Positions 1,840 through 64,000 of a DNA stretch of 64,000 nucleotides are shown one piece after another. Location: positions 3,767 to 67,766 of the forward strand of contig JAAZOH010000025.1 in assembly GCA_012797845.1 (NCBI GenBank), read 5' to 3'. Below the pieces are notes generated by a model. That model searched no databases, was not told the DNA's origin, and saw only the letters and a program-made list of their open reading frames with translations. Positions within the stretch are counted from its first letter, which is position 1. Every line of letters begins with the position of its first letter. Source of the stretch: Candidatus Beckwithbacteria bacterium. GTDB taxonomy: Bacteria; Patescibacteriota; Microgenomatia; UBA1400; UBA1449. A program made the translations under genes and the position numbers.

Positions 1840-4419
1840 TTAGATTTTCCAACTTTTAGTCGTATCTTTATCTAAAGTAAATTCTTCTTCTTGGCCTTTG
1901 ATGCGGACAATGTACTTACTATTTTTAGTACCAGGTTGTTTTTGAACTAGCATACTATAAGCATCACCAGCTTTTACTTTAAAAGGTAAAGTGTAAGTAA
2001 TAATAATCTTAGCTTTTTTCTCAGGATATAGTTCAAAAAAGCCTTCAAACACGGTTTTGTCCAAATCTTCACTTTGAGTAATTTTAGTTAAAGCTCCTCG
2101 CCCTTCCTCCAATTTTGAACCTTTTGGTACATAAATCCGGAAATAATCACGCCATTTTCCAGACAAACATAAGTCACCAGCTTCCAAATTACAATTATCC
2201 ATTGGTTCAGGATGGGTATAGGTAATTGTCAAAGTCTTGGTAACCGTACCATCATCGGCAATTTCGATATCCTGTTCAGCTTCCTGATCAATATAAAAAT
2301 TAGATTTAGCCCCACCAAGATTAGCGTCATTGATGTGCAAATAATCATTTTTAGCTTCATTGATTCTACCGGCAATATTGAAAGCTTCAGCAGCTTTTTG
2401 TAGCTTTTCATCTTTAAAATAAACCAGCAGATGTTTTTCTTCCATGAGTTGAAACATAAGCGGCACTAGTTTAGCTAGTTGTTCCTTACCACCACCCAAA
2501 GATTTTTTCATCAGAGCTTGCATCATTGGACCCAAAATAGAAGTTTTACGGTTAGTCACTACGGTAGCTAGTGGCTTATCAACAATGTGTTCCAGCTCGC
2601 AAACAATTTGAGCTAAATTACACCTAGGATCATTTTCAACTGTAAAGGTTCCATAATCATCAACTACCAAAGGACCAGTCACTTCAACCATGCGCCGTAA
2701 CACTTCTGTATCAATAGCAATAATGCCATCTACTTTATATTCATCTTTAAGTTCTGAATAGTATTTATCAAAAGTAGTCATAGATACATAATAATCAGGT
2801 GAGAAATTCATATTGCGCAAATACCAATAGTCTTCATTCATGTGAATTTTAAATGGTTCTGGAGCTTCAACTTTGTTGCCAAATTTCTTATCCAAACTAT
2901 AAATATCATCACTTTTCTCTGGGGTAGTTCGTCCTTTATCAATATTAATAACTGCAAAAGCACTCATAAAACCACCAGTTGGTCGCAGTTCACCATCATT
3001 TTGGAAAATAACTAAGTATTTCTTACTTGTCGGATACCCTAAAATTTGAGGTAAAACTTCAACTAACGGTCTGGCGTCAGTGACCGCTACCACAGCTTCA
3101 GCTACCAAGGCTTTACCTTGAATTAGGCGAGGTCTGATTGATTTGCCCTGAAGCTCTTCAGGATAGTCATTTGGGTCAATTTTATCTAGCTCATCTTCCA
3201 CAATCTGAAGTTTTTGCGAAACTTCTTCCAGTTTCGGAGTCACTTTGTCTAAAGTTTCAACTACTTTAACGATTCGGTCTTCAGCTGTTCCACCTTCAAA
3301 GCTACCTTGACCTTTTAAACCCAACACATCAGCATACGGCAAAACTGCATCAACTAAAATTTCTCCAGCTTCAATTCCAGCCACTCCAGCTTTAAGTCCA
3401 GCTTCAGCATCAGTAGCATAAGTTGATACAAACGGTATCGCTTTAAGCCATGAGAGCTTCTGATAGGCTTTTTGAGTAGCCAACAATGCTGTTTTAGTTT
3501 CACTTAACTTGGTTTTAGCTGGTTCTAAATCTTGGTTTTTGACTAAAGTATAAGCCTCTTGGGCTAAGGTCATAGTTTTCTGACCATTATCTAGAACCGG
3601 CTTTGCTAGTAAATAAGTGGTGGCCCCTAAGGCAATTACAAGCACCAAAACTACCCCCACTCCAATCCCAATCAGTTTTAAAGTTTTTTTACCCTTTTTC
3701 TGTTCTGCTTTTGGAGGTTGTTCTGTTTTTTTCTTACCAAACGGTAATTTAGCTTTAATTTTTGCCATAAGTGATAGTTTTTCTTCTTTTTCTACTTCCT
3801 GGTTTTGTTCAGGTTGAGATTCTACTTTTGGTTCTTGAGATTGAGCTTCATTTGGCTGATTTTCTTGAGGCTGCACTTGGGCTTCTACTGGTTTAGCAGC
3901 TTCACCTTGAGTCTGGTTTTCTTCAGGTTTAGTGGCTTCTGGTTGGGATTGTGCTTCTTGAGGCTTAGTTGTCGTCTCAGCTTGTGTTTGATTTTCTGCT
4001 GGAGCTGCCTCAGCCTGAACTTGGCTACTAGCATTGCCTGACTCCACTTTTCCTGGTTCGGTTTGTACTGGTTCAGTAGGAGCTGTCTCGGCTTTATTAG
4101 CTTCATTTTGAACTGGCTCTGGGGCATCTTTTTTGCCATCTTCAACTACCTGTGAATCTACTGGCTCGGTTTTTTTAGGGTCAGTATTTTGCTCAGCTGC
4201 AGCTTCTTGAGACTTTTCAGCTTCAACTGGCTTAGCGTCATTAGTCTCAGCTTTCTCTGGTTGAACTGAGGTTTCCGGCTCATTAAGTGCCTTAAGTTCG
4301 GTCGCTACTTCTTTAATCTCATTAACCAACTCTTGTGTTTCAGAGGAGATATCAGTTGTTTTATCATGAATGATTTGTTTTTTTGTTTTGGGCATAGGCA
4401 AGATGGCTCCGCTTACCAT
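1840..4419 (-). CDS. Membrane-anchored extracytoplasmic protein, DUF4012-like, with a ~230-aa disordered E/P/Q/T/A/K-rich cytoplasmic N-terminus
   Basis: Low-complexity N-terminus, then a single TM (LIGIGVGVVLVLVIALGATTYLL), then a large conserved C-terminal domain. This architecture resembles DUF4012 proteins found beside polysaccharide loci. Confidence 0.45.
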   Translation of the reverse strand: MVSGAILPMPKTKKQIIHDKTTDISSETQELVNEIKEVATELKALNEPETSVQPEKAETNDAKPVEAEKSQEAAAEQNTDPKKTEPVDSQVVEDGKKDAPEPVQNEANKAETAPTEPVQTEPGKVESGNASSQVQAEAAPAENQTQAETTTKPQEAQSQPEATKPEENQTQGEAAKPVEAQVQPQENQPNEAQSQEPKVESQPEQNQEVEKEEKLSLMAKIKAKLPFGKKKTEQPPKAEQKKGKKTLKLIGIGVGVVLVLVIALGATTYLLAKPVLDNGQKTMTLAQEAYTLVKNQDLEPAKTKLSETKTALLATQKAYQKLSWLKAIPFVSTYATDAEAGLKAGVAGIEAGEILVDAVLPYADVLGLKGQGSFEGGTAEDRIVKVVETLDKVTPKLEEVSQKLQIVEDELDKIDPNDYPEELQGKSIRPRLIQGKALVAEAVVAVTDARPLVEVLPQILGYPTSKKYLVIFQNDGELRPTGGFMSAFAVINIDKGRTTPEKSDDIYSLDKKFGNKVEAPEPFKIHMNEDYWYLRNMNFSPDYYVSMTTFDKYYSELKDEYKVDGIIAIDTEVLRRMVEVTGPLVVDDYGTFTVENDPRCNLAQIVCELEHIVDKPLATVVTNRKTSILGPMMQALMKKSLGGGKEQLAKLVPLMFQLMEEKHLLVYFKDEKLQKAAEAFNIAGRINEAKNDYLHINDANLGGAKSNFYIDQEAEQDIEIADDGTVTKTLTITYTHPEPMDNCNLEAGDLCLSGKWRDYFRIYVPKGSKLEEGRGALTKITQSEDLDKTVFEGFFELYPEKKAKIIITYTLPFKVKAGDAYSMLVQKQPGTKNSKYIVRIKGQEEEFTLDKDTTKSWKI

Positions 4420-5033
4420 TTAGTAATCATGGCTTGAGGAGTTTTTAACATAATAACTATATCATCTTTTAGACTATGATTGCGAGCATAATCACTATCC
4501 ATTTTAGCGCGTTTATCAAACGGGATTTCATTACGACCCGAAGTTTGCCAAGGACCAGTCATACCGGGCTTAACTTTGTAAATATTTTTAACCCATTTTC
4601 TAGTATGGGGATATTTTTTAGTCTGCTCATCTAATTCTTTTTTAAGATAGGCTCGGGGACCCACAATACTCATATCGCCTTTTAAAACGTTGTAAAGCTG
4701 GGGAAATTCATCCAATGTCAAATTGCGCATGATTTTACCCAATGGGGTAATCCGCGGATCATTAACTAGTTTCCAGTCACATTTTTTAAACTCTTCCAAT
4801 AGTTTTTTATCCTGCTTATGCAAAATATCGTCAGCATTAACTACCATAGACCTAAATTTATAAAACCAGAATTCTTTACCATTTTTACCCACTCGCCTAT
4901 GTTTGTAAAAAACTGGGCCTGGTGAATCGAGTTTAATGAGCAGCGGTAAAATAAGCCAGATCGGCAAAAATAAAACAAAAAGGATCAATGCCACTAAAAT
5001 ATCTATTGCTCGTTTGAGCGGTTCATAATCCAT
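4413..5033 (-). CDS. Initiating polyprenyl-phosphate sugar-1-phosphate transferase (small monotopic PGT, Bac_transf/PglC-WbaP C-domain type)
   Basis: Has an N-terminal re-entrant helix and the DEFPQLYNVLKGDMSIVGPRA motif characteristic of bacterial sugar transferases. Confidence 0.8.
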   Translation of the reverse strand: MDYEPLKRAIDILVALILFVLFLPIWLILPLLIKLDSPGPVFYKHRRVGKNGKEFWFYKFRSMVVNADDILHKQDKKLLEEFKKCDWKLVNDPRITPLGKIMRNLTLDEFPQLYNVLKGDMSIVGPRAYLKKELDEQTKKYPHTRKWVKNIYKVKPGMTGPWQTSGRNEIPFDKRAKMDSDYARNHSLKDDIVIMLKTPQAMITKW

Positions 5034-5042
5034 ATATTAATC

Positions 5043-6125
5043 TTAGTTTTGATACAAACTGTTGTAAAGCTCTTTTACCTTAGGAGCCTGAGCCATGGGG
5101 CAAACCAGTAAACCGGCATCACTATTGACCACAATCATATTAGATAAGCCGATTAAACCAACCGTTTTCCCTTGATGATTAATAATTAAAGAGTTACTCA
5201 CATCTAATAAATTTACCTTGCCAATAATCACATTACCATCATTATCTTTATCTAAACCATGATACAGCAGTTCCCAAGTTCCCACATCAATCCAACCCAT
5301 ATCAACTGGTAAATCCCACTGACTTTTAGGCGGCAACTTTTCAAAAATACCGTAATCGATCGATACTTTTTCCATCTGGGGATATTCTTCTTCCAGTACT
5401 GATTGATATTGTGGTGTATCAACAACCTTACTAATCTTCTCAAGCCGTGCATAAATTTGAGGCGCATATTTTTGATAGTAAGAGAGTAAAAGTGATGGCT
5501 TAGTAGCCATGTAGCCAACATGAATTAGATATTCATGTGATCTAAATAATTTTTGAGCAGTTTCTAAATCCGGTTTTTCTACCTGTTGTAAAAATTCATA
5601 AACATCATGTTTAGCTTCGGTTTTGACTTTCTGGCCAATTTTAATCCAACCGTTATGAACAGATGGATAAGTAGGAAAACAGTCTACGTGAACTATCCGA
5701 TCATGAGCAGCAGCCAAAGAAGCCGCCTCGCAAATTGCATCCAAAAAGACTTCATCATTTTGAATCACATGATCTGCTCCCCAAAGCATAATCATAACTG
5801 CCTTAGGGTGACGTTTAGCAATCACTGACGTAGCCAAACCAACAGCTCCAAGATTGTCCCGCATGGCTGGTTCTAAAATTAAGTTTTTATCAGGAATTTG
5901 TGGGGCTTGTTTTTTGAGCTGGTCTTTAAATTTCTCTGAAGTAGCAATATAGACATCTTCAGGCTTAAAACGCTTTAAAACTCTGGCTACAAACTCGGCA
6001 AATATTGACCGCTTGCCCAACAAACCCTCAAATTGTTTCGGATGGTCCATATTGCTAATCGGCCACATCCGAGTGCCTTTACCGCCACACATAATTAAGA
6101 CTTTGATTTCTGGTTTTGTCTCCAT
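5043..6125 (-). CDS. manC: Mannose-1-phosphate guanylyltransferase (GDP-mannose pyrophosphorylase)
   Basis: N-terminal nucleotidyltransferase signature LIMCGGKGTRMWPIS, and overall length and pattern like ManC/CpsB. Confidence 0.7.
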   Translation of the reverse strand: METKPEIKVLIMCGGKGTRMWPISNMDHPKQFEGLLGKRSIFAEFVARVLKRFKPEDVYIATSEKFKDQLKKQAPQIPDKNLILEPAMRDNLGAVGLATSVIAKRHPKAVMIMLWGADHVIQNDEVFLDAICEAASLAAAHDRIVHVDCFPTYPSVHNGWIKIGQKVKTEAKHDVYEFLQQVEKPDLETAQKLFRSHEYLIHVGYMATKPSLLLSYYQKYAPQIYARLEKISKVVDTPQYQSVLEEEYPQMEKVSIDYGIFEKLPPKSQWDLPVDMGWIDVGTWELLYHGLDKDNDGNVIIGKVNLLDVSNSLIINHQGKTVGLIGLSNMIVVNSDAGLLVCPMAQAPKVKELYNSLYQN

Positions 6126-7195
6126 AATTCCTCCACAATTTTTGCAAAATTGTTTTTAAAAATTGTTTTACTAAATTTTTGAGCTTGCGCTTTGCAAACT
6201 TGAGCTGAAAAGTCTTTCTTTTCAAATTCTAGCAAAGCTTTTTCTAAACTAGATACTGATTGTTTTTTAAAAAGTATTCCGGTTTTATTTGAAATAATTG
6301 TATCTAAAACGCCACCTTTAGCAAAAGCAATTACTGGTTTACCAAAGCTCATTGCTTCAACCGGCACAATTCCAAAATCCTCATAACCGGCAAACAAAAC
6401 TGCCTGACAGCGCTTATAGTACATAGCAAGTATGTCATCTGTCAAATTTCCCACAAAATAAATAGTTTTACCGACTAGCTTTCTAAGCCTTTTTTCCTGT
6501 TCACCACTACCTACTATTATTAAATTTCGTTGCAATTTATTACAAACTTTGATTGCCAAATCAACCCGTTTATAAGAAACCAAACGAGAAACCACTAGAT
6601 AAAACCGCTTTGGTGTTTTTATAGGCAATATTGTTTTTGGTTCAGATAGCTCAACTGGCGGAAATATAATGCGGCTATCTTGATGGTAGTATCGCTTAAT
6701 TCTTTGAGAAACAGCTGTGGAAATAGCAATAAAGTGATCAATGTTTTGGATCGCTTTAAAATCAGTTTGCCGCAAAAATGGACCCAACAATTTTAAAAAT
6801 AAGCCTTTAATACCTTCTCGTTCATAACTTTTGCGATGCGACCATAAATAGCGGGTTGGCGTCAGACAATAGCAAATGTGGAGTGTCTGAGAACCAGTTT
6901 TTATGTGTTTAGCTTCAGCTGAAGTCACTGAAATAACTATGTCAAATTCATCAAAATTAAACTTGGAAAAGGCTAAAGGCGTCAACCAAGCAAACCATTC
7001 ATGATGATCTTTTGCAAAAGGTATGTTTTGTAAAAATGAAGTTTTAACATTAAAAACTTTGGCCCAAGGAGCTTTAGTAGGGTTGTAGACTGTTGTATAA
7101 AGAGGAGCTTGAGGCCAAATTTCATGTAGGGCTAACAAAACCCGCTCAGCCCCACCAAACTTATTGACCCGATCATAGACTAAAGCAATTTTCAT
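6095..7195 (-). CDS. Glycosyltransferase family 4 (GT-B, retaining)
   Basis: C-terminal EX7E-type motif YEDFGIVPVEAMSFGKPVIA. Confidence 0.8.
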   Translation of the reverse strand: MKIALVYDRVNKFGGAERVLLALHEIWPQAPLYTTVYNPTKAPWAKVFNVKTSFLQNIPFAKDHHEWFAWLTPLAFSKFNFDEFDIVISVTSAEAKHIKTGSQTLHICYCLTPTRYLWSHRKSYEREGIKGLFLKLLGPFLRQTDFKAIQNIDHFIAISTAVSQRIKRYYHQDSRIIFPPVELSEPKTILPIKTPKRFYLVVSRLVSYKRVDLAIKVCNKLQRNLIIVGSGEQEKRLRKLVGKTIYFVGNLTDDILAMYYKRCQAVLFAGYEDFGIVPVEAMSFGKPVIAFAKGGVLDTIISNKTGILFKKQSVSSLEKALLEFEKKDFSAQVCKAQAQKFSKTIFKNNFAKIVEELWRQNQKSKS

Positions 7196-7619
7196 AAAAT
7201 TTTCTAAGGTGAATAATATCTTTTCTACTTATATGTGTAAAAATTAGTTTAGTTGCCAGATGTTGCCAATTTATAAATTCACTGACTTTATACATAGTCC
7301 AATTACAAAAACTTCTTGACTGATAGTTAGATGTTTTAAAATTCAAATATGTTGGTATAAATAAATTATAGCTATCTATTCCATTTCTTGTTATTTTGGC
7401 CTTTTTATTAAAAATATTTACAGTTTGGGGCTCAAAACATGATTGGCCATATTTTTTAAAAGCAATTCCTACAACATAATCAGGTTTATTTTGAATAATT
7501 AATTGCTTAAATGTTTCAATATCTTTTGTTAGTTTATAAAAATAGAAAATACTGGGAAAAATATCTTCTATTTCTTTTTTATAGGGAAAGGTTTTAAAGC
7601 TATAAACCAACAGATTCAT
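7173..7619 (-). CDS. Miniaturised pyroglutamyl-peptidase I (peptidase C15)-like protein, 148 aa
   Basis: Alignable by eye to Pcp. The N-terminus LLVYSFKTF matches VLLTGFDPF, NKPDYVVGIAFKKYGQSCFEPQTVN matches HQPDIIICVGQAGGRxxITPERVAIN (catalytic Glu), SFCNWTMY matches TFVCNHLFY (catalytic Cys), and FTHIS matches FIHIPY (His). The gene is AT-rich. Confidence 0.35.
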   Translation of the reverse strand: MNLLVYSFKTFPYKKEIEDIFPSIFYFYKLTKDIETFKQLIIQNKPDYVVGIAFKKYGQSCFEPQTVNIFNKKAKITRNGIDSYNLFIPTYLNFKTSNYQSRSFCNWTMYKVSEFINWQHLATKLIFTHISRKDIIHLRKFYENCFSL

Positions 7620-7626: not shown

Positions 7627-8769
7627 TTAAAAAACCTCTTGATAAACCTGCCAGGTTTGAGCAGCTGCTTTTTCCCATGTGTAAGTCTTACTATACTTCA
7701 TGCCTTTTTCAACAATCTTATTCCGCTGCTTATCACCAAGGTTCATAGCTTGCTGCATCAGCTCAAAGAGCTGCTGACTATTATGAGGATCAAAATACCA
7801 AGCATTAGAACCATAAATCTCTGGTAAGCTGCCGGTATTACTACTAATTACCGGGCAAGCACTGGCCATAGCTTCTAATCCTGGTAAACCAAAACCCTCC
7901 ATAAGCGATGGAAAAACATACGCCCTAGCTTGAGCATATAAAAATTTTAATTCTTCATCAGGCACATTGCCGGGCATAACTATATAATTTTCCAGTTTAT
8001 ATTTGGCAATCTGGTCTTTAAGTCTTTGCCAAAAAACGTTTCTGGCACAGGCAATCAAAAGCTGAACCTTGTTATTTTGAGCTTTAAACTGCTTTAAAGC
8101 TTCAAGTAAAACTTCTAAATTTTTACTAGGATAGGCTGAGCCTGTATAAACAAAGTAAGGAGCATTTAACTGATATTTCTTTTGGATTTTTTTTGAAGCC
8201 GCACTTTCCAATGTGAGGTTCAAATTATATGGCTCACTAACCCCCTCATAAACAACTCTAATTTTATCTTTAGCCAGTGGATAATGAACCGCCACCTGAT
8301 CTTTAGTAAACAGCGATGGTGTAATAATACATTCTGATCGTTTAATAGCTTGGCCAATCGTCAACCGGTAACCACCATATTTAAGCCAATAAACTAAACT
8401 GCTTCGGGTTGTTACTGGCTTGCCTTTAAAAAAATGTTTGATCAAATCATGAATAGTGACAATATATGGAGTTTTGGCTAAAACTGGCACATTAAAATGC
8501 ATAAAATGCATGAGGTCTAATTTTTCCTTATCAATTACGCCTCCAAACTGAAGTTGTTCTTTAAGAGAATAGTGAGGAATTTCGGTTTCAACCAGATGAC
8601 AGTTTTTAAGCAAAGCTTTGTCTTCCTGCCATTGGTGACGATTGATAAAGAGCGTAAAGTCGGCTTTATCCTGATATTTATTTAAAAGCGCTAAAACCAA
8701 CTCACGAGTATAGCGGCCCAAACCCGCATGAGTAATACCCCAAAACCGACAATCAAGCCCTATCTTCAT
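7627..8769 (-). CDS. Glycosyltransferase family 4
   Basis: Motif EGFGLPGLEAMASACPVISS, GT-B fold. Confidence 0.8.
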   Translation of the reverse strand: MKIGLDCRFWGITHAGLGRYTRELVLALLNKYQDKADFTLFINRHQWQEDKALLKNCHLVETEIPHYSLKEQLQFGGVIDKEKLDLMHFMHFNVPVLAKTPYIVTIHDLIKHFFKGKPVTTRSSLVYWLKYGGYRLTIGQAIKRSECIITPSLFTKDQVAVHYPLAKDKIRVVYEGVSEPYNLNLTLESAASKKIQKKYQLNAPYFVYTGSAYPSKNLEVLLEALKQFKAQNNKVQLLIACARNVFWQRLKDQIAKYKLENYIVMPGNVPDEELKFLYAQARAYVFPSLMEGFGLPGLEAMASACPVISSNTGSLPEIYGSNAWYFDPHNSQQLFELMQQAMNLGDKQRNKIVEKGMKYSKTYTWEKAAAQTWQVYQEVF

Positions 8770-12316: not shown

Positions 12317-12318
12317 AA

Positions 12319-51529: not shown

Positions 51530-51554
51530 AAAATAAAAAATGAAAAGTTGAAGT

Positions 51555-52412: not shown

Positions 52413-52453
52413 ATTACTCTGAATTATAAAATAATTTACAAGAAAAGCAATTT

Positions 52454-53632: not shown

Positions 53633-53634
53633 CC

Positions 53635-55438: not shown

Positions 55439-55447
55439 TTAAAATTT

Positions 55448-56356: not shown

Positions 56357-56374
56357 TTAGAAAATTTATATTGC

Positions 56375-56902
56375 ATGAAAAAAGTAATTTTTTATGAACA
56401 ATTAGAGTTAAAAAGCTTTGTTGTTTTGACTAAAAATGAAAAACAATTAGTCTATCAATGGAGAAATAACCAAAAAATAAGTAAGTGGATGATTAATCAA
56501 AATAAATTTTCCTATACAGAACATCTTCGATTTATAAAAAAATTAGCAAAGGATAATAATAATTTTCACTGGCTTGTCCAAAACAAAATAGATAAAGAAT
56601 ATCTTGGAGTATGCAATTTAGTTAATATAGATAAAAAACATAAACATTGTTACTTGGGAATATACGTAAATCCTAGTTTGCAAAATAAAGGATATGGAAC
56701 TGACATTCTAAAAGTCTTAAAGCACATTGCTTACAATCTACTTAACATACATACCATAAAATTAGAAGTTTTTGAGCACAATAGCAGAGCCATTAATTTT
56801 TATAAAAAAAATGGTTTCAAAAAAGAAGGTTTACTTAAAGATTACATTTTGATAAACAATAAGTGGCACAACCTTCTTCTCATGGGCCATTTCCCCAAAT
56901 AG
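56375..56902 (+). CDS. pseH: GNAT N-acetyltransferase PseH-like (UDP-4-amino-4,6-dideoxy-AltNAc N-acetyltransferase)
   Basis: Aligns by eye to C. jejuni PseH: QWRNNQKISKWM...EHLRFIKKL versus KWRNHPDINQFM...EHLRFLKKL, and a GNAT core. Confidence 0.7.
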   Translation: MKKVIFYEQLELKSFVVLTKNEKQLVYQWRNNQKISKWMINQNKFSYTEHLRFIKKLAKDNNNFHWLVQNKIDKEYLGVCNLVNIDKKHKHCYLGIYVNPSLQNKGYGTDILKVLKHIAYNLLNIHTIKLEVFEHNSRAINFYKKNGFKKEGLLKDYILINNKWHNLLLMGHFPK

Positions 56903-56904
56903 TT

Positions 56905-57780: not shown

Positions 57781-58670
57781 AGCAATTAAAATTAGGAATC
57801 ATTGGTCTTAGCGAAGGGAATGGCCACCCTTACTCCTGGTCAGCAATTTTTAATGGCTTTAATAAAGCTGTTATGAAAACTTGTCCTTTTCCGGTTATTT
57901 ACGAATATTTGAGTAAGCAACGTTTTCCTAAAGATGCAATTGCTGGTGCCAAGGTAACCCATATTTGGACCCAAGACCTAAGCATTTCCCGACACATTGC
58001 CAAAGCCTCAAATATTGTAAATATTGTTACTGATTACCAAGATATGATTGGCCAAGTTGACGCTATCTTATTAGCTAGAGACGACTCGCAAAACCATTTG
58101 AAGATGAGCCGCCCTTTCTTGCAAGCCGGCTTACCCATTTACATTGATAAACCTCTGGCCACAACCATTGCTGAGGCTAAAAAAATGTACTCTTTAGAAC
58201 AGTATGCTGGCCAGATATTTACCTGTTCAGCTCTTGCCTATGCCAAAGAACTTACGCTAAGCCCAAAAAAATTGGATAGCTTTGGTCCAATACATTTTGT
58301 CAATGCTATCACTCCTAAGTACTGGGAAACCTACGCTGTTCATATTATTGAGCCAACTCTTAATCTTTTTAAAACTAAGACTAAACATATAAAATCAGCT
58401 TCAACCCATAAGTCAAAACAAATCACTACCACAAGCATTATTTGGGATTCTGGCTTAATAACCAACTTCAGTGCATTGGGTCAAAGTGCTACTCCAATCA
58501 AAATTGAGATCTATGGACAAAATAAATCTGAGGTGTTAGTCTTTAAAGATACTTTTTTTGCTTTTAAAAAAGCTTTGGAAGAATTTATTGCTATTATTAC
58601 TAAAAAAAAGAAACCTCAAAAAAAAGAAGACGTTTTGCATTTAATTTCAATAATTGAACAAGGGCTTTAA
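57768..58670 (+). CDS. Gfo/Idh/MocA-family NAD(P)-dependent oxidoreductase (PtmF-like position)
   Basis: LKLGIIGLSEGNGHPYSW is the Rossmann N-terminus typical of Gfo/Idh/MocA enzymes. Confidence 0.6.
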   Translation: MEKVKQLKLGIIGLSEGNGHPYSWSAIFNGFNKAVMKTCPFPVIYEYLSKQRFPKDAIAGAKVTHIWTQDLSISRHIAKASNIVNIVTDYQDMIGQVDAILLARDDSQNHLKMSRPFLQAGLPIYIDKPLATTIAEAKKMYSLEQYAGQIFTCSALAYAKELTLSPKKLDSFGPIHFVNAITPKYWETYAVHIIEPTLNLFKTKTKHIKSASTHKSKQITTTSIIWDSGLITNFSALGQSATPIKIEIYGQNKSEVLVFKDTFFAFKKALEEFIAIITKKKKPQKKEDVLHLISIIEQGL

Positions 58671-58671
58671 C

Positions 58672-59427
58672 ATGAAAAAAACTATTTTAATCACTGGTGG
58701 TACAGGCAAAATTGGCCAGGTCTTAACAAAGCATTTTTTAAAAAAGGACTACAAGGTAATCATTACTAGTAGAAATGAACAGCAGGCCTTAAAGCTTTTT
58801 GCTAACAGTAAAAATATACCAAATCTCAGCGTTATCGAGATTGACTTAAGAGCAGATAAAGCTATCAACCATGTGATCAGCTCTCTCGAAAAACTAAATG
58901 CAAAACCTTATGCTCTTATTCACTGTGCCCGAAATTTAGAAAGCCTCAAGTACTCACCGGACTTAGAAACTAGGATCAAAAATTGGCAAGCTGAGTATTT
59001 ACTGGATGTAGTTATACCCTATGAACTTTCACTGGCAGTTGCCAAAATGAAGGAATCGAAATTAACAAATGTGGTTACCATCTCTTCAATGTATGGTGTG
59101 GTTGCGGCCAATCCTCATCTTTATACTAATCCACAAATTCAGTCTCCTGTGCAATATAGTGTAGCCAAGGCTGCTCTTATCCATGCCACCAAAGAAATGG
59201 CCATAAGATTAAGTCCACAGAAAATAAAGGTTAACTGCATATCTTATGGAGGTATTGAGGGAAGGGCTGATGAGGATTTTAAAAAGAGATATGGAAAACT
59301 TTGCCCTATTGGTAGAATGCTTACTGAAGAGGAAATTATTAAGCCAGTTGAATTTCTGATTTCTAATAGCTCCACTGCTATGCAAGGCCATAATTTGATT
59401 GTAGATGGGGGCTGGTCTATATGGTAA
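58672..59427 (+). CDS. Short-chain dehydrogenase/reductase (SDR), PtmA-like
   Basis: TILITGGTGKIGQ glycine motif, and YSVAKAAL catalytic YxxxK. Confidence 0.7.
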   Translation: MKKTILITGGTGKIGQVLTKHFLKKDYKVIITSRNEQQALKLFANSKNIPNLSVIEIDLRADKAINHVISSLEKLNAKPYALIHCARNLESLKYSPDLETRIKNWQAEYLLDVVIPYELSLAVAKMKESKLTNVVTISSMYGVVAANPHLYTNPQIQSPVQYSVAKAALIHATKEMAIRLSPQKIKVNCISYGGIEGRADEDFKKRYGKLCPIGRMLTEEEIIKPVEFLISNSSTAMQGHNLIVDGGWSIW

Positions 59428-60107
59428 GCAAAGTAGCTATTATCCCTGCCAGAAAAGGCTCGAAACGAATTCCTCTAAAAAACATAGTCAACTTTCATGG
59501 TAAGCCTCTCATAGCCTGGACCATAGGAGCAGCATTAAAATCAAAAGTGTTTGATGCTGTTTATGTTAGTACTGATAGTCAGAAAATCGCTAACATAAGC
59601 GAAAAATATGGAGCTAAGGTCCCTTTCCTACGTACAAAATATACAGATGATAACTCTTCGGTAAGCAGTGTGATTATTGACTTTTTGGAAAATTTAAAAA
59701 AGAAAAAAAGCAAGGAATTTGATGTAGTTTTTTCCCTAATGCCCAATTGCCCGCTTAGAACTGGCCAAGATATCATACGAGCCGATAAAAATTGTACTGC
59801 CAAAAAGGCTAGTTTTCAACTCAGCTGTTTTGAATTTGGATTTATGAATCCATGGTGGGCATTTACTCTAGATAAAAACTGCAGACCAGAGTATATTCAT
59901 AAAAGCGCTCTTAAAAAACGATCTCAGGATTTATCTAAATTATTTTGTCCCAGCGGTGCTATTTGGATTGCAAATATTAAAGCTTTGCAAAAAAGCAAAA
60001 CCTTCTATGGCCCCAATCATATTTTTTATAAATTGGGTTGGAAGAATGCAATTGATATCGATAGTAAAGAGGATTTAGAACTAGCTAAAAGCTTCTCAAA
60101 AAATTAA
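59421..60107 (+). CDS. pseF: CMP-nonulosonic acid synthetase (acylneuraminate cytidylyltransferase family; PseF/NeuA-like)
   Basis: VAIIPARKGSKRIPLKN N-terminal signature of CMP-sugar cytidylyltransferases. Confidence 0.7.
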   Translation: MVSKVAIIPARKGSKRIPLKNIVNFHGKPLIAWTIGAALKSKVFDAVYVSTDSQKIANISEKYGAKVPFLRTKYTDDNSSVSSVIIDFLENLKKKKSKEFDVVFSLMPNCPLRTGQDIIRADKNCTAKKASFQLSCFEFGFMNPWWAFTLDKNCRPEYIHKSALKKRSQDLSKLFCPSGAIWIANIKALQKSKTFYGPNHIFYKLGWKNAIDIDSKEDLELAKSFSKN

Positions 60108-60108
60108 T

Positions 60109-60984
60109 ATGTTTTCTTTTAATAGTAAGTATCTCTCAAAACAATCAGCTAATATTTTATTTCTTTATTTAAAAAGTTTTTTAAATAAAGAATATACTTT
60201 TTCGAGCGAGGACCTTTTTACTCAACTACACCAACTATATTGGCAAACACCTAAAGTGGAAGTTATTAAAAAAGATAAAAATCTTCAACTACTAAAGGTT
60301 AAAAAACTGAAATTCTACTGGCCAACAAATATTCCCTTACAAGGCCTGGAATGGATTTATAATGAAGTATTTTATCCATATAAAAAAAATCCTGCTTCTT
60401 ACGATCACCCCTTATTTGATTTTAAAAAAGTAAACTGGGTCATAGATGCTGGTGCAAGTGAGGGTTTTTATACAAATTTTGCCTTTAAAAACAAAGCTAA
60501 AAAAGTAATAGCTATTGAACCCCTTTTAATTTTAAAAGAAAGCTTGCAACAGACTTTTAAAAAGGAGGTAAAAAAAAGACAGCTCGAAATTATTTCTAAA
60601 AGCTTGGGAAGAAAAAAAGGAAAGGCATATTTGAAATTTGAAAATAATTGTCTATATAACTCGAGTGTCGATGATAAAAAAGATAAAAATTATCAGAAAA
60701 CAAAAATTACTACTATTGATTCAGTTGTAAAAACAAATAAATTAAAGGGTAAGGGGATTATAAAAATGGATATAGAAGGTGGGGAAATAGATGCCCTAAA
60801 AGGTGCAGTCGATTGTTTACAGAGGAATAAACCTAAATTAGCTATAGCTGTATATCATAATCAACAAAACTACCACAAGTGCAAGGAAGTGATTTTCAAG
60901 GCTAACCGCAACTATCGGATTGAAGCTAGAGGAATGTATTGCTGGAAAACTCCGCCTAGACCTTTTATGTTATTTGCCTATTAA
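60109..60984 (+). CDS. FkbM-family methyltransferase
   Basis: VIDAGASEGFYT...IKMDIEGGEIDALKGA, the FkbM/Methyltransf_21 signature. Confidence 0.65.
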   Translation: MFSFNSKYLSKQSANILFLYLKSFLNKEYTFSSEDLFTQLHQLYWQTPKVEVIKKDKNLQLLKVKKLKFYWPTNIPLQGLEWIYNEVFYPYKKNPASYDHPLFDFKKVNWVIDAGASEGFYTNFAFKNKAKKVIAIEPLLILKESLQQTFKKEVKKRQLEIISKSLGRKKGKAYLKFENNCLYNSSVDDKKDKNYQKTKITTIDSVVKTNKLKGKGIIKMDIEGGEIDALKGAVDCLQRNKPKLAIAVYHNQQNYHKCKEVIFKANRNYRIEARGMYCWKTPPRPFMLFAY

Positions 60985-60993
60985 AATAAAAAT

Positions 60994-62613
60994 ATGCCTA
61001 TCAACAAATTTTCTCATATTTTTACTGATTTTAGTAAAAACCGGCAAAAAAATAATGCATTACTACCTTTAATAAAGGATGCAAATACAAAATATTTAAA
61101 AAATAAAAATGGTTTAAAAATACTTTTTGGTCCAAGCTTTCCTTTTGGTGAAAATTTTATATATCATGATTTACTCCTTGCTTTACTACTACACTCTCAG
61201 GGTTGCGAAATTTATTATGCTGGGGGAATTATCAATAATATCTCCCCTTCTATCTATTTAGGCGGCCAATGGTCATCAGGAAATAAGAAGACTGACTTTA
61301 AAAAAATTAAATATGGAGAATTAAAAGCTTTAAACGATTTCAAGAAACTGGGAAAGACTTATGACATGAAAAAGTACCTAAGTAAAACTGAGATAAATAA
61401 GTTAAAAGTGAATTTAGCAAAAATAAAATTTGAAGATTTGCTCAAATACAAGTTTGAAAACATAGACCTGGGGCATGATGCTATGAATAAAGTTAGAAAT
61501 CATCATCTTGTTAGTAGCATAGATCTAGTAAAAAATAAAAGGAACTTGGTTAGAGAGGCTCTTTTGAATTGCAATATGTATGAAATCTTCTTTAGAAAAA
61601 TAATTGAAGAATTAAAACCTGATAGGATTATTTCTCACGATTCCTTTTATTACCCCTGGTCAGTCCTTAGAAAAATTGCCGATTTGAAGAATATTAATTA
61701 TTACAATTATTATTTTGGTTTTAAAAAGGATGAATATATCTATGCAAACAATAAACCAGCAATGTCATTAAATACAACACCTATGTGGAAAAAAGTTAAG
61801 TCTGTACCTCTTCAAGAAAGTCAGATTAAAAAAATTGACAAAACACTTAAAAAAAGAATAAATGGCGATGTAGGCCGCTTAGGTCTTGTCAGATATTCCA
61901 ACAGTAAAGAGGTGGAAAAAATTATTAAATTTGCAAAACAAAAACCTACAGCGGTTCTATATGGCAACGTATGCTGGGATTTAAATGCACTTGACAAAGA
62001 ACTCTTTTTTAAGTCAATTAAAGAAGGTTATTTTAAAACTATTGAATATTTTCTTCAACATAAAAACTATCAACTAATCATTAAGTCTCATCCAGCAGAA
62101 GAGCATCCAAAGATCCCCATTACTGTCGAAAGCTTGGAAAGCATGATAAAAAAGAAGTATGGTTTGTTGCCAAAAAACATTATCTTGCTTCCCCCAAAAA
62201 CAGCAATAACTGCTTATGACCTATTTCCTATTACTAATGTAAGCGTAGTCTGGACAAGTACCGCAGGCATAGAAAGCGTAATTTATAATACCCCAACTAT
62301 TACTATAGCTAATACCCATTTTCGCAATAAGAATTTTACCTTAGATCCAGCTTCTCAAAAAGAATATTATTCCATTTTAGAAAAAGTGTTAATAAAAAAA
62401 ATGCATTTAGCTAAAAAAACGAAATATTTAGCATATAAATATTTTTACTATTATTTAAATTGCTTTAGCTATAACTATGGTATTCCAACGCAAAACTGGA
62501 CAGAAGCATTAAGCGAGGATCATAAAAATAAAGTCAATCACTTTTTTGAAAATAAGCGGCTAAAATATATAGTTGGCACTATTGTAAATGGTAAAAAAAT
62601 CGAATTAGTATAA
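60994..62613 (+). CDS. Putative KpsS/KpsC (Capsule_synth)-like GT-B protein, candidate ulosonic/nonulosonic acid transferase
   Basis: C-terminal LIIKSHPAEEHP...VVWTSTAGIESVIYNTPTITIA resembles the conserved HP motif and GT-B C-lobe of Capsule_synth family proteins. Confidence 0.3.
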   Translation: MPINKFSHIFTDFSKNRQKNNALLPLIKDANTKYLKNKNGLKILFGPSFPFGENFIYHDLLLALLLHSQGCEIYYAGGIINNISPSIYLGGQWSSGNKKTDFKKIKYGELKALNDFKKLGKTYDMKKYLSKTEINKLKVNLAKIKFEDLLKYKFENIDLGHDAMNKVRNHHLVSSIDLVKNKRNLVREALLNCNMYEIFFRKIIEELKPDRIISHDSFYYPWSVLRKIADLKNINYYNYYFGFKKDEYIYANNKPAMSLNTTPMWKKVKSVPLQESQIKKIDKTLKKRINGDVGRLGLVRYSNSKEVEKIIKFAKQKPTAVLYGNVCWDLNALDKELFFKSIKEGYFKTIEYFLQHKNYQLIIKSHPAEEHPKIPITVESLESMIKKKYGLLPKNIILLPPKTAITAYDLFPITNVSVVWTSTAGIESVIYNTPTITIANTHFRNKNFTLDPASQKEYYSILEKVLIKKMHLAKKTKYLAYKYFYYYLNCFSYNYGIPTQNWTEALSEDHKNKVNHFFENKRLKYIVGTIVNGKKIELV

Positions 62614-62616
62614 ATT

Positions 62617-63840
62617 ATGACTAAAGTACTATTTATAGCACCAATTCTAACTTTTCCTTATGCTGGAGGCCCTGAAATGAGTGCTCACAACGCCATCAAG
62701 GCTTTAAATAAAATTTCTGAATTGCATATTATAACAACTATGCCATTAGCTAAAATGGGTGGCAATCAAGCCTTCCAATATTATGGAAAAATATCTAAGC
62801 AATTAGATTTCACTCCAATAGCTCAGGAACAAAATTTTTTAGAAAATTATTTTATAAAAAAAATTCGAAAATATTTTTTTACGAAGGGGAAAAAAAATGA
62901 GGCAGATGATGTCAGATATATTATTAAATATTATGATCAAAATAACATCGACATTATTTGGTCCGATAGACATGAATTTTCTTACAATCTAATTTTTGAA
63001 ATAAAAAAACTAAGACCAAATATCAAAATAGTTTGCGATACAGCTGCAGTCCATTCACAATTTATTCTAAGAGAAATTCCTTTTCAAAAAGACAAGTCAA
63101 AAATTAAAAAAATAAAAAAATCTGGTAAAGAATACGAAAATTATGAGAAAAAATTGGTTAATATTGCTGATGTAACTACAGCAGTTTCAGAAATTGATGC
63201 ATCTATTTTTAAATCTTGGACAAAGCATAAAGAAAGAATATTTGTTTTCCCCAATGTGGTTGATTTAGAAAATTATAAAAAAATAAAAACATCTAACACT
63301 ATAAAAACTCCATCTCTTTTAATAGCTGGAACATTTTATGAACAAAGTCCAATGGAACATGGCACTAGATGGTTCCTAAATAATGTTTTGCCAAAAGTTA
63401 GAAAAGAGTTCCCGGAAATCTTTGTTTATATTATTGGCAAGGGTTCAGACTGGATTCTTCGAGATATTGCCGATCCAAAAATAATTATTACTGGCAAGGT
63501 AGATTCAGTTTCGCCATATTTACATAACACTAGTATTGGTTTGGTCCCTCTTCATTTTGAATCAGGAACAAGATTTAAAATCTTAGAATATGGGACAGCT
63601 TCATTACCCACAGTTTCTACAAGCCTGGGAGCAGAAGGGCTAAATCTTGGAAAAAATGTTAGCATTCTCATAGAAGATAATCCGATAAAATTTGCTCAAG
63701 TAATTATCAATCTTCTAAAAAATAAAGCCTTGCGTATTAAAATGGGAAAGAATCTTTATAAGGTTGTCAAAAAAAATTACTCTATCGATAGTCTCGCTAG
63801 TAGTGGTAGTAAAATAATTAAATATTTAATGAGTCAATAG
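62617..63840 (+). CDS. GT-B glycosyltransferase (GT4/GT1-like)
   Basis: C-terminal HFESGTRFKILEYGTASLPTVST (EX7E-like). Confidence 0.55.
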   Translation: MTKVLFIAPILTFPYAGGPEMSAHNAIKALNKISELHIITTMPLAKMGGNQAFQYYGKISKQLDFTPIAQEQNFLENYFIKKIRKYFFTKGKKNEADDVRYIIKYYDQNNIDIIWSDRHEFSYNLIFEIKKLRPNIKIVCDTAAVHSQFILREIPFQKDKSKIKKIKKSGKEYENYEKKLVNIADVTTAVSEIDASIFKSWTKHKERIFVFPNVVDLENYKKIKTSNTIKTPSLLIAGTFYEQSPMEHGTRWFLNNVLPKVRKEFPEIFVYIIGKGSDWILRDIADPKIIITGKVDSVSPYLHNTSIGLVPLHFESGTRFKILEYGTASLPTVSTSLGAEGLNLGKNVSILIEDNPIKFAQVIINLLKNKALRIKMGKNLYKVVKKNYSIDSLASSGSKIIKYLMSQ

Positions 63841-63841
63841 T

Positions 63842-64000
63842 ATGAAAATTAGCATCATCGGTCTTGGTTATGTTGGCTGTGTCAATCTAGCGTGTCTAGC
63901 TCAAAATGGACACATGATCTGGGGTGTCGATATTTCTAAAGATAAGGTGGATAAAATAAATAAAGGGGAACCAACCGTTATCGAAAAGGATTTGAAAAAA
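63842..64000 (+). CDS. ugd: Nucleotide-sugar 6-dehydrogenase (UDP-glucose/GDP-mannose dehydrogenase family), N-terminal 53 aa; continues beyond the window
   Basis: MKISIIGLGYVGCVNLACLAQNGHMIWGVDISKDKVDKINKG is the canonical NAD-binding N-terminus of this family. UDP-glucose specificity is inferred from the co-occurring UXS and UDP-GlcA epimerase. Confidence 0.6.
   Translation, partial: MKISIIGLGYVGCVNLACLAQNGHMIWGVDISKDKVDKINKGEPTVIEKDLKK

Follow-up and report, generated by a model that had tools for sequence, protein, structure and literature searches.

We examined a 64,000-nucleotide stretch of Candidatus Beckwithbacteria DNA (contig JAAZOH010000025.1; hereafter, the window), most of which is occupied by one large glycan biosynthesis locus laid out as two divergent gene blocks, one on each strand. 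NCBI lists three proteins of this DNA as hypothetical or DUF2142 proteins of the same bacterium, with locus tags GYA49_03395 and GYA49_03595; it is a member of the Microgenomates group. The DNA also appears in ENA as contig k127_428933 (70,369 bp, run ERR1876141), of which the window covers about 3753-67752. The original prediction for this DNA described a glycan megalocus that places a Wzx/Wzy-type export machinery beside one of the ATP-binding cassette (ABC) transporter type. The window holds 58 open reading frames (ORFs) of at least 100 amino acids, which tile it nearly without gaps. We assigned these to families with Pfam and NCBIfam, applying the cut-offs of the models, and added Protein Data Bank (PDB) searches, AlphaFold2 models and Foldseek comparisons for selected ORFs. 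The megalocus proved real: all of the gene classes that had been named were found where they had been placed, and profile annotation upheld the Wzx, Wzm/Wzt and glycosyltransferase (GT) assignments. Both export machineries, Wzx and Wzm/Wzt, do stand side by side.

For comparison with relatives, we used a 309-kb contig (L002), the 157-kb JGI contig Ga0171657_1000056 (L086 and L088, of which a continuous 40 kb was seen), a 114-kb contig (L089) and a genome named as Beckwithbacteria (L090). A contig scan with the UDP-xylose synthase (UXS) of the window brought in the syntenic contigs L002, L009, L007, L006 and L012; UXS is a very conserved enzyme, and its best matches had 48-57% identity and came from many phyla.

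The locus runs from 1840 to past 64000, a span of at least 62 kb with about 57 densely packed genes. The bulk of the predicted extent (4413-64000) stood, and both of its edges moved outward. On the left, a gene for a DUF4012 membrane protein (1840-4419, minus strand; PF13196, 88.1 bits) overlaps the gene for the initiating phosphoglycosyltransferase (PGT) by 7 nt and for this reason is part of the minus block, the last gene in it, which puts the left edge at 1840. On the right, the gene for a UDP-glucose 6-dehydrogenase (63842-64000, plus strand; 434 aa; UDPG_MGDP_dh_N, 181.9 bits) is still open at the window end; on the source contig it is followed by a methyltransferase gene and a 148-aa ORF, and then the contig stops. 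With these genes going on to the contig end, the locus is truncated by the window, and it is probably truncated by the contig as well.

The 57 genes from RecO to the window end encode glycan enzymes and transporters, membrane proteins (four of them without a family) and two products of another kind, a tetratricopeptide repeat (TPR) protein and a 148-aa orphan ORF. Pfam found no housekeeping gene among them, and every family-assigned gene from 1840 to the window end belongs to glycan biosynthesis or membrane transport, with the TPR protein as the single exception. No transposase or integrase family matched any window ORF in Pfam, in keeping with the earlier report of no visible mobile elements, and tRNA and Rfam scans of the window gave no match. 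The left flank (1-1833) is housekeeping DNA: a piece of a glycyl-tRNA synthetase gene that extends beyond the start of the window (minus strand, recognized by eye), a 75-aa membrane ORF (1042-1269) and RecO (1285-1833), co-oriented with the glycan block and 6 nt away from it.

The genes are packed as tightly as had been claimed. Coding density is 98.5% across 4413-64000, and 24 of the 50 same-strand junctions overlap (11 as exact ATGA), while at a further 22 the genes are no more than 20 nt apart. Of the translationally coupled polycistrons that the original prediction drew from this packing, the tight coupling of genes is real, and operon structure found no support in sequence signals: in 28000-40000, a promoter scan returned 32 sites versus 41.4 expected from shuffled sequence, and a terminator scan returned 8 versus 9.5, with no excess in either. 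The highest-ranking promoter-like sequence (TACACA-18-TATAAT, minus strand, 35708-35679), a consensus match only, lies in the 262-bp intergenic region that separates the blocks (35634-35895). The two blocks are divergent, as predicted, but the minus block is not entirely minus, since it includes one plus-strand gene (29919-31064); the plus block includes two minus-strand genes (37504-38799 and 51555-52412). Base composition does vary within the locus, with a GC content of 0.283-0.397 in 2-kb windows and 0.24-0.40 per gene.

The minus block encodes the parts of a Wzx route, and Pfam supports each class of protein that had been listed for it: an initiating PGT, Wzx, a ligase- or Wzy-like protein, acetyl- and methyltransferases and a run of GT-C-like proteins. 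All genes in this paragraph and the next are on the minus strand. The initiating enzyme is a small PGT of the WbaP C-terminal type (4413-5033; Bac_transf, 207.8 bits versus a cut-off of 27; TIGR03025, 254.8 bits, below its cut-off of 295), and beside it lies ManC, a mannose-1-phosphate guanylyltransferase without a phosphomannose isomerase domain (5043-6125; NTP_transferase and ManC beta-helix; TIGR01479, 213 bits over the guanylyltransferase part only). At least six GT4 and four GT2 enzymes had been claimed, and we found six and five. The GT4 genes lie at 6095-7195 (Glycos_transf_1, 106 bits), 7627-8769 (113 bits), 15888-17027 (119.8 bits), 20156-21286 (92.5 bits), 24815-25924 (84.9 bits) and 9627-10823 (Glyco_trans_1_4, 93.9 bits); the last is the most conserved gene of the core, with 70% identity in L086. 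Four of the GT2 genes, all matching Glycos_transf_2, are at 8753-9625 (98.5 bits; 54% identity in L086), 13916-14833 (84.5 bits), 22719-23543 (101.9 bits) and 26691-27482, a divergent member (28.1 bits, a weak match; 46% identity in L088).

The flippase is of the Wzx type (MOP/PST; 23540-24796; Polysacc_synt, 85.6 bits versus 28.2; Polysacc_synt_3, 54.1 bits), and NCBIfam gave no name for it. A polytopic protein of the Wzy_C family with a Pro-rich external loop is encoded at 12319-13932 (36.3 bits versus 31.7; 62% identity in L086). On the Patescibacteria-like contig L009, a homologue of it (E 1e-94) lies inside a 1,247-aa ORF beside UXS (10942-14685, minus strand), which suggests a fusion with a further domain. 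Tailoring enzymes are a WcaF-like hexapeptide O-acetyltransferase (15289-15885; Hexapep, 59.3 bits; PRK10502, 98.6 bits) and an S-adenosylmethionine (SAM)-dependent methyltransferase (25921-26694; Methyltransf_11, 71.2 bits). Among the smaller or unassigned membrane proteins are one of the RDD family (14830-15285; 41.9 bits; absent from L086), a polytopic protein with about seven transmembrane segments (17024-18367; no family match; absent from L086) and a 160-aa protein beside the 18364 gene (19662-20144; 32% identity at the same position in L086). The DUF4012 protein begins with about 230 residues of low complexity, rich in Pro, Glu, Gln, Ala and Thr, followed by one membrane helix; by its position it is a candidate auxiliary envelope or chain-length protein. 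DUF4012 is enriched among candidate phyla radiation (CPR) bacteria, also occurs in Gram-positives and is present in a Bifidobacterium exopolysaccharide locus (PMC6744442). The 148-aa ORF at 7173-7619 has a GC content of 24%, no family match and a 23-nt overlap with the upstream GT4 gene, and it is an orphan gene or perhaps no gene.

The locus is unusually well supplied with polytopic GT-C proteins. Seven ORFs lie above a Pfam cut-off for PMT_2, PMT or DUF2142: on the minus strand, 10835-12316 (PMT_2, 72.4 bits; 58% identity in L086), 28169-29782 (PMT/PMT_2; PMT, 42.4 bits; 45% identity in L089 and 37% in L002), 31033-32499 (PMT_2, 31.9 bits), 32549-34063 (PMT_2, 33 bits) and 34035-35633 (DUF2142, 50.1 bits; PMT_2, 39.7 bits); on the plus strand, 41193-42797 (PMT_2, 32.7 bits; GC 29%) and 42801-44375 (PMT_2, 47.9 bits). 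The 34035 gene, the first of the minus block at the junction, has more than 286 homologues, named Beckwithbacteria, Microgenomates or Patescibacteria. NCBIfam adds the minus-strand gene 21283-22722 (NF052499, MT1671 mannosyltransferase, E 5e-16; PMT_2, 21.8 bits, under the cut-off of 26.1; 43% identity in L086). Homologues add the two genes that run against their blocks, 29919-31064 on the plus strand (PMT, E 0.052) and 37504-38799 on the minus strand. The former is a real gene: it has a 37.5% identical homologue in the same place and the same inverted orientation in L089, and in L002 a PMT_2 gene occupies that place. The latter has no direct Pfam match and appears to be of the MptA/B type, judged by homologues in L088 and L089 that are 48-52% identical and match PF26314 (MptA_B_family); its position and inversion are kept in L089.

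These genes bring the number of GT-C proteins to at least 10, and probably to 11 with the product of 18364-19653 (minus strand; GC 28%), a member of a rare family for which nine homologues were found. Its AlphaFold2 model (predicted local distance difference test [pLDDT] 81, predicted template modelling score [pTM] 0.87) has GT-C proteins as all of its top seven PDB matches in Foldseek (AftA, ALG9, ALG12, ALG3 and oligosaccharyltransferase [OST]), at weak E-values of 0.14-1.2, and the modelled fold makes it a probable GT-C glycosyltransferase. A recent expansion of one GT-C family was ruled out, as all-versus-all phmmer links only 41193 and 42801 (2e-145) and, weakly, 31033 and 10835. The 41193/42801 pair are recent tandem duplicates with GC contents of 29-30%, the lowest among the large genes, and sit inside a 7.5-kb segment that the relatives lack.

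Two further proteins could supply such enzymes with lipid-linked sugars. The fifth GT2 of the minus block (27486-28163, minus strand; Glycos_transf_2, 129.9 bits) is of the polyprenyl-phosphate-sugar synthase type, with a catalytic domain only and no membrane domain. Its PDB matches are DPMS (5mlz, 2.4e-19) and ArnC (4e-19), it is also PpgS-like, and it resembles AglJ (139 bits) and a dolichyl-phosphate hexose transferase (84 bits), all equivalog models remaining below their cut-offs. In the plus block, an MprF-type flippase-like membrane protein (45399-46370, plus strand; LPG_synthase_TM, 159.4 bits; TIGR00374, 115.5 bits versus a cut-off of 43.2) is, by family membership, a candidate flippase for a polyprenyl-phosphate sugar; no GtrA-type flippase was found in the window. 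A synthase-type GT2, a flippase-like protein and at least 10 GT-C enzymes together are the signature of extracytoplasmic decoration and coupling.

The plus block opens with sugar supply and, as had been predicted, holds Wzm/Wzt, a nonulosonic acid pathway and nucleotide-sugar enzymes; genes in this paragraph are on the plus strand. UXS, a UDP-glucuronate decarboxylase (35896-36867; human UXS1, E 1.7e-101), is followed by a SAM methyltransferase (36874-37554; Methyltransf_23, 54.4 bits) and a short-chain dehydrogenase/reductase (SDR) family epimerase (38829-39803; PDB 5u4q, 3e-84; 6zla, 1.5e-54; MoeE5, 1.7e-44). Structure 6zla is the Bacillus cereus UDP-glucuronic acid (UDP-GlcA) 4-epimerase; on this sequence similarity, the epimerase is probably a UDP-glucuronate 4-epimerase giving UDP-galacturonic acid (UDP-GalA). 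Next comes a segment of a flavin adenine dinucleotide (FAD) enzyme (39850-41196; PRK07208 models, 280 bits, below cut-off; UDP-galactopyranose mutase [UGM] 3ute, 3e-11), the two tandem GT-C genes, a polytopic membrane protein with about seven transmembrane segments and no family match (44420-45409), the flippase-like protein and a membrane O-acyltransferase (46367-47380; Acyl_transf_3, 74.7 bits). The FAD enzyme appears weakly related to UGM. Beyond this segment lies an epimerase/reductase of the GDP-L-fucose synthase family (47445-48383; Escherichia coli Fcl 1bsv, 3.9e-59; NF047922, 302.8 bits, under the cut-off of 500), which has 72-73% identity in L002 and L088. Its partner in fucose synthesis, GDP-mannose dehydratase (GMD), is absent from the window, and so the earlier hints of fucose and galactofuranose are borne out only as far as an Fcl-like enzyme and a weakly UGM-like one.

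The ABC exporter follows, with the ABC-2 permease Wzm (48307-49191, plus strand; ABC2_membrane, 60.9 bits; true start likely at 48373, 272 aa in the gene call) and the ATPase Wzt (49194-50435, plus strand; ABC_tran, 87.7 bits), which ends in a carbohydrate-binding domain (Wzt_C, 51 bits versus 30.4; residues 274-391). The best NCBIfam names for the two, all below cut-offs, are galactan and teichoic acid exporters.

Downstream of the exporter, the nonulosonic acid pathway can now be named: the equivalog matches identify the product as pseudaminic acid, with PseB, PseC, PseH and PseI all above their NCBIfam cut-offs. These are an inverting UDP-N-acetylglucosamine (UDP-GlcNAc) 4,6-dehydratase (PseB; 50432-51529; TIGR03589, 500.6 bits versus 407.75), an aminotransferase (PseC; 52454-53632; TIGR03588, 506.4 versus 423.5), an N-acetyltransferase (PseH; 56375-56902; TIGR03585, 140.1 versus 93.1) and pseudaminic acid synthase (PseI; 54392-55438; TIGR03586, 495 versus 340.25), all on the plus strand. 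Neuraminic or legionaminic acid was rejected as the product: PseI scores 495 bits in its own model and 309.8 in the NeuB model, under the cut-off of 399.65, and LegB and LegC fall far below PseB and PseC. Activation would fall to a PseF-like nonulosonic acid cytidylyltransferase (59421-60107, plus strand; TIGR03584, 185.9 bits, just under the cut-off of 205.7).

Other genes are interleaved with these: a xylose-isomerase-like TIM-barrel protein (53635-54408; AP_endonuc_2, 59.8 bits), a SAM methyltransferase (55448-56356; Methyltransf_25, 36 bits), an aldo/keto reductase (56863-57780; Aldo_ket_red, 110.6 bits), a Gfo/Idh/MocA oxidoreductase (57768-58670; 44 bits), an SDR oxidoreductase with a PtmA-/EpaB-like domain (58654-59427; adh_short_C2, 95.9 bits; PRK09186, 153.6, and PtmA, 111.7, both below cut-off), a second methyltransferase, of the FkbM family (see below), and, on the opposite strand, the TPR gene (51555-52412; TPR_12, 36.3 bits). 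Because of these extra enzymes, the end product may be a modified pseudaminic acid, further epimerized or methylated. The TIM-barrel gene lies between PseC and PseI, the position of PseG or PseH in canonical clusters, and its product might be a non-orthologous replacement of the UDP-sugar hydrolase or an unrelated modifier. The TPR gene, between PseB and PseC, has no obvious role in sugar synthesis and is absent from the homologous modules in L083 and L085. With the Pse pathway known from Campylobacter jejuni and Helicobacter pylori, the window shares PseB, PseC, PseH and PseI; it has a PseF-like candidate, carries the interleaved genes in addition and lacks PseG. The row at 56863-60107 (aldo/keto reductase, Gfo/Idh/MocA, SDR, cytidylyltransferase) has a domain set like that of EpaA plus EpaB. 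EpaA (CTP_transf_3 and, as its C-terminal half, Aldo_ket_red) and EpaB (adh_short_C2) make 8-epi-pseudaminic acid in Acinetobacter prophages (PMC12053666); the domains are the same, but those fused in EpaA are separate genes in the window.

The module ends with a methyltransferase of the FkbM family (60109-60984; Methyltransf_21, 54.8 bits), a 539-aa protein that no Pfam or NCBIfam model claims above cut-off (60994-62613) and a GT4 (62617-63840; Glyco_trans_1_4, 69.8 bits), all on the plus strand. The 539-aa protein is very rare, with 14 homologues in 5.8 billion sequences, and in related loci the FkbM gene always stands directly upstream of its homologue. Its AlphaFold2 model (pLDDT 85, pTM 0.83) has a GT-B fold, and the best Foldseek superpositions are with two retaining beta-Kdo transferases, KpsC (8fux and 6mgb; E 8e-8 to 1e-6, TMt 0.48-0.51) and WbbB (TMq 0.37). 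Four positions are invariant in the 14 homologues, D329, H366-P367 and E427, with D329 placed 37 residues before the HP pair. A profile of the family matches KpsC (6mgd) at E 0.011, and there the Asp, HP and Glu align with QVESD, HP and GFE. We take the Asp to be the catalytic residue of KpsC, in keeping with its D160 mutant structure entries. The clan of KpsC and WbbB includes a pseudaminyltransferase, KpsS1, of family GT118 (PMC12887879). On these grounds, we regard the 60994 protein as a candidate retaining nonulosonic acid (pseudaminyl) transferase related to KpsC, WbbB and KpsS1.

The neighborhood of its homologues is similar. The FkbM gene and the 60994 homologue stand beside Wzt(Wzt_C) and a nonulosonic acid pathway in L083/L084, near-identical loci from two JGI samples, and in L085; in these contigs, it is a legionaminic-type pathway (PglD-like acetyltransferase, CBS-nucleotidyltransferase and Epimerase_2). 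The regions concerned are 60109-63840 in the window, 9129-12889 in L083 and 8987-11632 in L085. In L083/L084, a homologue of the GT4 (47% identity) and UDP-glucose dehydrogenase gene fragments follow the pair, which is not the case in L085. By analogy with known systems, the 60994 protein is possibly a chain terminator whose product the Wzt domain recognizes.

We also considered whether the 60994 protein is the missing UDP-sugar hydrolase, as its lowest Foldseek E-value is to a UDP-GlcNAc 2-epimerase. This is less likely, because the TM-score to the epimerase is 0.25 versus 0.3-0.5 for KpsC and WbbB, because the conserved motifs align with KpsC and because homologues co-occur with an Epimerase_2 gene in L085. 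Compared with families GT99 (WbbB), GT107 (KpsC/KpsS), GT118 (KpsS1) and GT140 (KrkA), the 60994 protein shares the GT-B fold, the Asp, HP and Glu motifs and the CMP-nonulosonic acid neighborhood; it differs in scoring below the family thresholds and in an extra N-terminal region of about 200 residues, and its likeness to KpsS1 is via the clan. It may be that this protein founds a very rare nonulosonic acid transferase family within the KpsC/WbbB/KpsS1 clan and, with the FkbM enzyme, caps the ABC-exported glycan with a (methylated) pseudaminic or legionaminic acid that serves as the Wzt export signal; we put this forward tentatively, as a proposal we are still inclined to doubt. The link of the protein to KpsC is marginal, which also counts against the convergence model given below: the TM-scores to KpsC and WbbB reach only 0.3-0.5, Capsule_synth scores 15.7 bits under a cut-off of 20 (E 0.011), the PDB profile match is at a similarly marginal E 0.011, and a single-sequence PDB search gave no match.

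Comparison with relatives shows how these parts are held together. In L002, L086/L088 and L089, the same divergent junction recurs, with the DUF2142/GT-C run on one side and UXS, epimerase, Fcl-like enzyme, Wzm and Wzt(Wzt_C) on the other, although the proteins of these syntenic contigs are only 30-73% identical. Because this junction is found in three other Patescibacteria contigs, back to back as in the window, the two blocks are not separate islands, an outcome that the original prediction had named as refuting it. On Ga0171657_1000056, the plus side has UXS (61% identity), epimerase (65%), Fcl-like enzyme (72%), Wzm (61%) and Wzt(Wzt_C) (50%). The minus side keeps the order of the window, with homologues of 34035, 32549 and 31033, then GT2s, methyltransferase, GT4, Wzx, GT2 and 21283, and after these GT4, 19662, 18364, GT4, acetyltransferase, GT2, Wzy_C, PMT_2, GT4 and GT2; in L086, the core is collinear over the stretch that starts with the methyltransferase 25921 and ends with the GT2 8753, with 32-70% identity. 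L089 keeps both wrong-strand genes (29919-31064 and 37504-38799) in place. The toxin-antitoxin pair PhdYeFM/ParE and a Fic-domain gene are inserted in the conserved core of L086, the closest syntenic relative (7868-8373 and 16967-17596), and the window has neither there.

The same comparison identifies the variable sub-blocks that had been sought. Two segments are absent at that place in L002, L088 and L089 and have lower GC in parts: 39850-47380, which runs from the UGM-like enzyme through two GT-C genes, a membrane protein and the flippase-like protein to the acyltransferase, and 50432-63840, the pseudaminic acid (pse) module. The locus is thus a lineage-conserved core with two accessory modules. 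L090 keeps the junction of DUF2142 and SDR genes and the Wzx/GT-C/GT4 core. Taken as a whole, the original interpretation is partly supported.

On balance, we think it somewhat probable that Candidatus Beckwithbacteria has here its main locus for assembling cell-envelope glycopolymers, in which pathways converge rather than run as two unrelated ones. In the cytoplasm, ManC would make GDP-mannose, the dehydrogenase UDP-GlcA, UXS UDP-xylose, the 4-epimerase probably UDP-GalA and the Fcl-like enzyme a GDP-6-deoxyhexose; PseB, PseC, PseH, PseI and the PseF-like enzyme would yield CMP-pseudaminic acid, possibly epimerized or methylated. On the Wzx route, the small PGT would prime a lipid carrier, presumably undecaprenyl phosphate, on which GT4 and GT2 enzymes, the O-acetyltransferase and a methyltransferase would build an oligosaccharide, to be flipped by Wzx and polymerized or transferred outside by the Wzy_C protein. 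A second chain would be finished in the cytoplasm and exported by Wzm/Wzt, a pairing of glycans with routes that we infer from the gene neighborhoods. Because Wzt has a C-terminal carbohydrate-binding domain, it may recognize a cap at the non-reducing end of this chain, and the cap could be pseudaminic acid, perhaps methylated, added by the 60994 protein with the adjacent FkbM methyltransferase. Outside the membrane, the 27486 synthase and the 45399 flippase-like protein would supply lipid-linked monosaccharides, with which at least 10 divergent GT-C enzymes could add side-chain sugars, couple the chains, or both. The acceptor might be a wall polymer, a lipid or a protein. That the routes end in one product is suggested by analogy: rhamnose cell wall polysaccharide (Rha-CWPS) loci with an ABC exporter and Wzx yield one composite wall polymer. 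From the sequence by itself, one product cannot be told from two.

Several observations weigh against this convergence model. L090 shows no ABC transporter within 10 kb, from which it follows that the ABC part is not universal; the ABC route is dispensable in that genome or located elsewhere in it, and the case for the two routes being necessarily coupled is weaker for it. Operon boundaries could not be defined from the 28000-40000 scans. Pfam matched no Wzz/polysaccharide copolymerase chain-length regulator, no WecA/TagO-type initiator and no LytR-CpsA-Psr (LCP) ligase (LytR_cpsA_psr) among the window ORFs, and the window has no large multi-domain polymerizing glycosyltransferase; L089 does have such an enzyme, a GT2-GT2-GT4 fusion of more than 1,048 aa after the transporter. 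The Wzy_C match, just above its cut-off, is partial, covering residues 394-457 and thus only the last part of the domain, and it cannot discriminate among a polymerase, a ligase and an O-oligosaccharyltransferase. In the pseudaminic acid pathway, the cytidylyltransferase falls just short of its model's cut-off, and PseG is missing, with no match to its expected Pfam family among the window ORFs and no NCBIfam match in the ORFs scanned; its gene may be at another place in the genome, or another enzyme may stand in for it.

Such gaps leave room for other readings. The nearest, and the main one of the original prediction, which also allowed for one polymer plus protein glycosylation, holds that the locus makes two independent surface polymers, a Wzx/Wzy heteropolysaccharide from the minus block and an ABC-exported polymer, possibly with pseudaminic acid, from the plus block, which share only nucleotide-sugar pools and are decorated, one or both, by the GT-C enzymes. 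Each route does have its own core parts, and in L090 the Wzx/GT-C core stands with no ABC transporter close by. In the unrelated contexts of L083 and L085, the pse module moves together with Wzm/Wzt as a unit of its own, and GC dips mark the modules. Against two unconnected polymers stand an adjacency at one divergent junction that persists in three other contigs at only 30-73% identity and a single initiating transferase in the window for two routes, and the closest characterized loci with such a combination make one composite polymer (PMC9574508). We consider this reading rather doubtful, while keeping it the foremost of the alternatives. More extreme is the view that there is no functional unit at all, and that unrelated sugar islands merely adjoin in a gene-dense, co-directional CPR genome. 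The per-gene GC range of 0.24-0.40, the accessory segments missing from the closest syntenic contigs and the toxin-antitoxin and Fic insertions in relatives would suit it. Against this stand 57 genes without any housekeeping gene, a core order kept over about 40 kb in a relative whose proteins are 32-72% identical, and a supply that matches its consumers, with dehydrogenase, UXS and epimerase acting in one pathway and the gene of the donor synthase next to GT-C genes. This makes chance adjacency very improbable.

A third possibility is that the locus serves mainly protein glycosylation, with the Wzy_C protein as a PglL/TfpO-like O-oligosaccharyltransferase, the PMT-like GT-C enzymes O-glycosylating proteins that are secreted, for example type IV pilins or an S-layer protein, and pseudaminic acid placed on protein. 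O-oligosaccharyltransferases are among the members of the Wzy_C family, as are protein O-mannosyltransferases among those of the PMT family. In O-antigen loci, Wzy is usually the most variable gene; here, the opposite holds, as few core genes are better conserved than that of the Wzy_C protein (62% identity with L086), while Wzx has 34%. This hints at a ligase or oligosaccharyltransferase role and fits a generalist transferase better than a polymerase specific for one repeat unit. Pseudaminic acid is, in addition, typical of flagellins and pilins, and type IV pili are CPR-enriched (PMC6744442). However, Pfam found no pilin, S-layer or Maf-type transferase gene in the window, Wzm/Wzt with a carbohydrate-binding domain is a device for polymer export, at least 10 divergent GT-C enzymes exceed the needs of any known protein O-glycosylation system, and some of them resemble enzymes of lipoglycan and arabinan synthesis, namely MptA/B, MT1671 and AftA. 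We consider a mainly protein-directed role unlikely. Two narrower candidates were rejected: Maf-type flagellin glycosylation, as neither Maf nor flagellar genes are present, and a lipopolysaccharide (LPS) O antigen, as no lipid A or Kdo genes are present and an envelope of the Gram-negative kind appears to be missing in CPR bacteria (PMC6744442).

Patescibacteria of the CPR are of very small size and for the most part uncultured; they appear to live attached to other cells, and the chemistry of their surface is barely known. Their genomes are typically about 1 Mb, and if that of Beckwithbacteria is of this size, the locus takes up several percent of it. Gene order is kept across relatives whose proteins are only 30-70% identical, for which reason we see its product as central to the cell envelope, probably in host contact or phage recognition. 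For glycobiology, the gene set offers divergent GT-C enzymes, at least 10 in number, together with a pathway to pseudaminic acid in which PseG is lacking and a candidate new nonulosonic acid transferase.

Among known systems, the closest in mode of working are the Rha-CWPS loci of Gram-positive bacteria, where an ABC-exported backbone receives Wzx-flipped side chains joined by GT-C enzymes (PMC9574508); some streptococcal rgp loci also have DUF2142 polytopic proteins and a UGM gene (PMC9746298). Lactococcus lactis cwps, Streptococcus rgp/gac and Enterococcus faecalis epa share with the window, in one locus, a Wzm/Wzt-type exporter for a backbone made in the cytoplasm, Wzx for side-chain units on a lipid and outside-acting GT-C enzymes; their three- or four-component glycosylation includes a polyprenyl-phosphate-sugar synthase, for which the window has a candidate. 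The window differs in lacking rmlABCD equivalogs, recognizable rhamnosyltransferases, an LCP ligase and a GtrA-type flippase; its SDR genes are UXS, the GlcA-epimerase-like gene, the Fcl-like gene and PseB, none of them an RmlA-D equivalog. Its initiator is a small WbaP-type PGT instead of TagO/WecA, its size is two to three times theirs, it has at least 10 GT-C genes versus one to three, and it adds a pseudaminic acid module in a CPR host. Because rhamnose genes, LCP ligase and a TagO-type initiator are absent from the window, the likeness to Rha-CWPS loci would be one of function, and not of membership or whole-locus homology.

For the export signal, the comparison is with ABC-dependent O antigens, in which the chain is closed by a terminal methyl/phosphate or a Kdo residue that Wzt recognizes (PMC3482155, PMC9445017, PMC11231755); the carbohydrate-binding modules of Wzt read modifications of the chain end (PMC9445017). 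The E. coli O9a (WbdD) and Raoultella/Klebsiella O12 (WbbB) systems share with the window Wzm and Wzt(Wzt_C), methyltransferases and a KpsC/WbbB-like GT-B protein in the transporter block. Unlike in those systems, the candidate cap is a nonulosonic acid and not Kdo, and the putative transferase is a stand-alone protein of 539 aa with marginal sequence similarity, whose role as terminator we infer. CPR bacteria appear to be without an outer membrane or LPS (PMC6744442). If the proposal is true, the "terminate, then export" checkpoint, characterized mainly in Gram-negative O antigens, would extend to CPR bacteria that lack an outer membrane and to a nonulosonic acid signal.

The number of GT-C genes brings to mind yet another group. 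In mycobacteria and corynebacteria, arabinogalactan and lipoarabinomannan are built by many divergent GT-C enzymes (Emb, Aft, MptA/B) that act outside the membrane on polyprenyl-phosphate sugars. The points of likeness are all weak: AftA as top fold match of 18364, the MptA_B_family in homologues of 37504 and MT1671 for 21283. Unlike in those bacteria, neither DprE1/E2 nor a UbiA-type phosphoribosyltransferase nor galactan genes turned up here, and the phylum and cell plan are others. The individual machineries and the principle of their combination are already known from Gram-positive wall polysaccharide loci, and this locus stands out by how large it is, how it is conserved in CPR relatives, how many GT-C enzymes it has and by its rare candidate pseudaminyltransferase.

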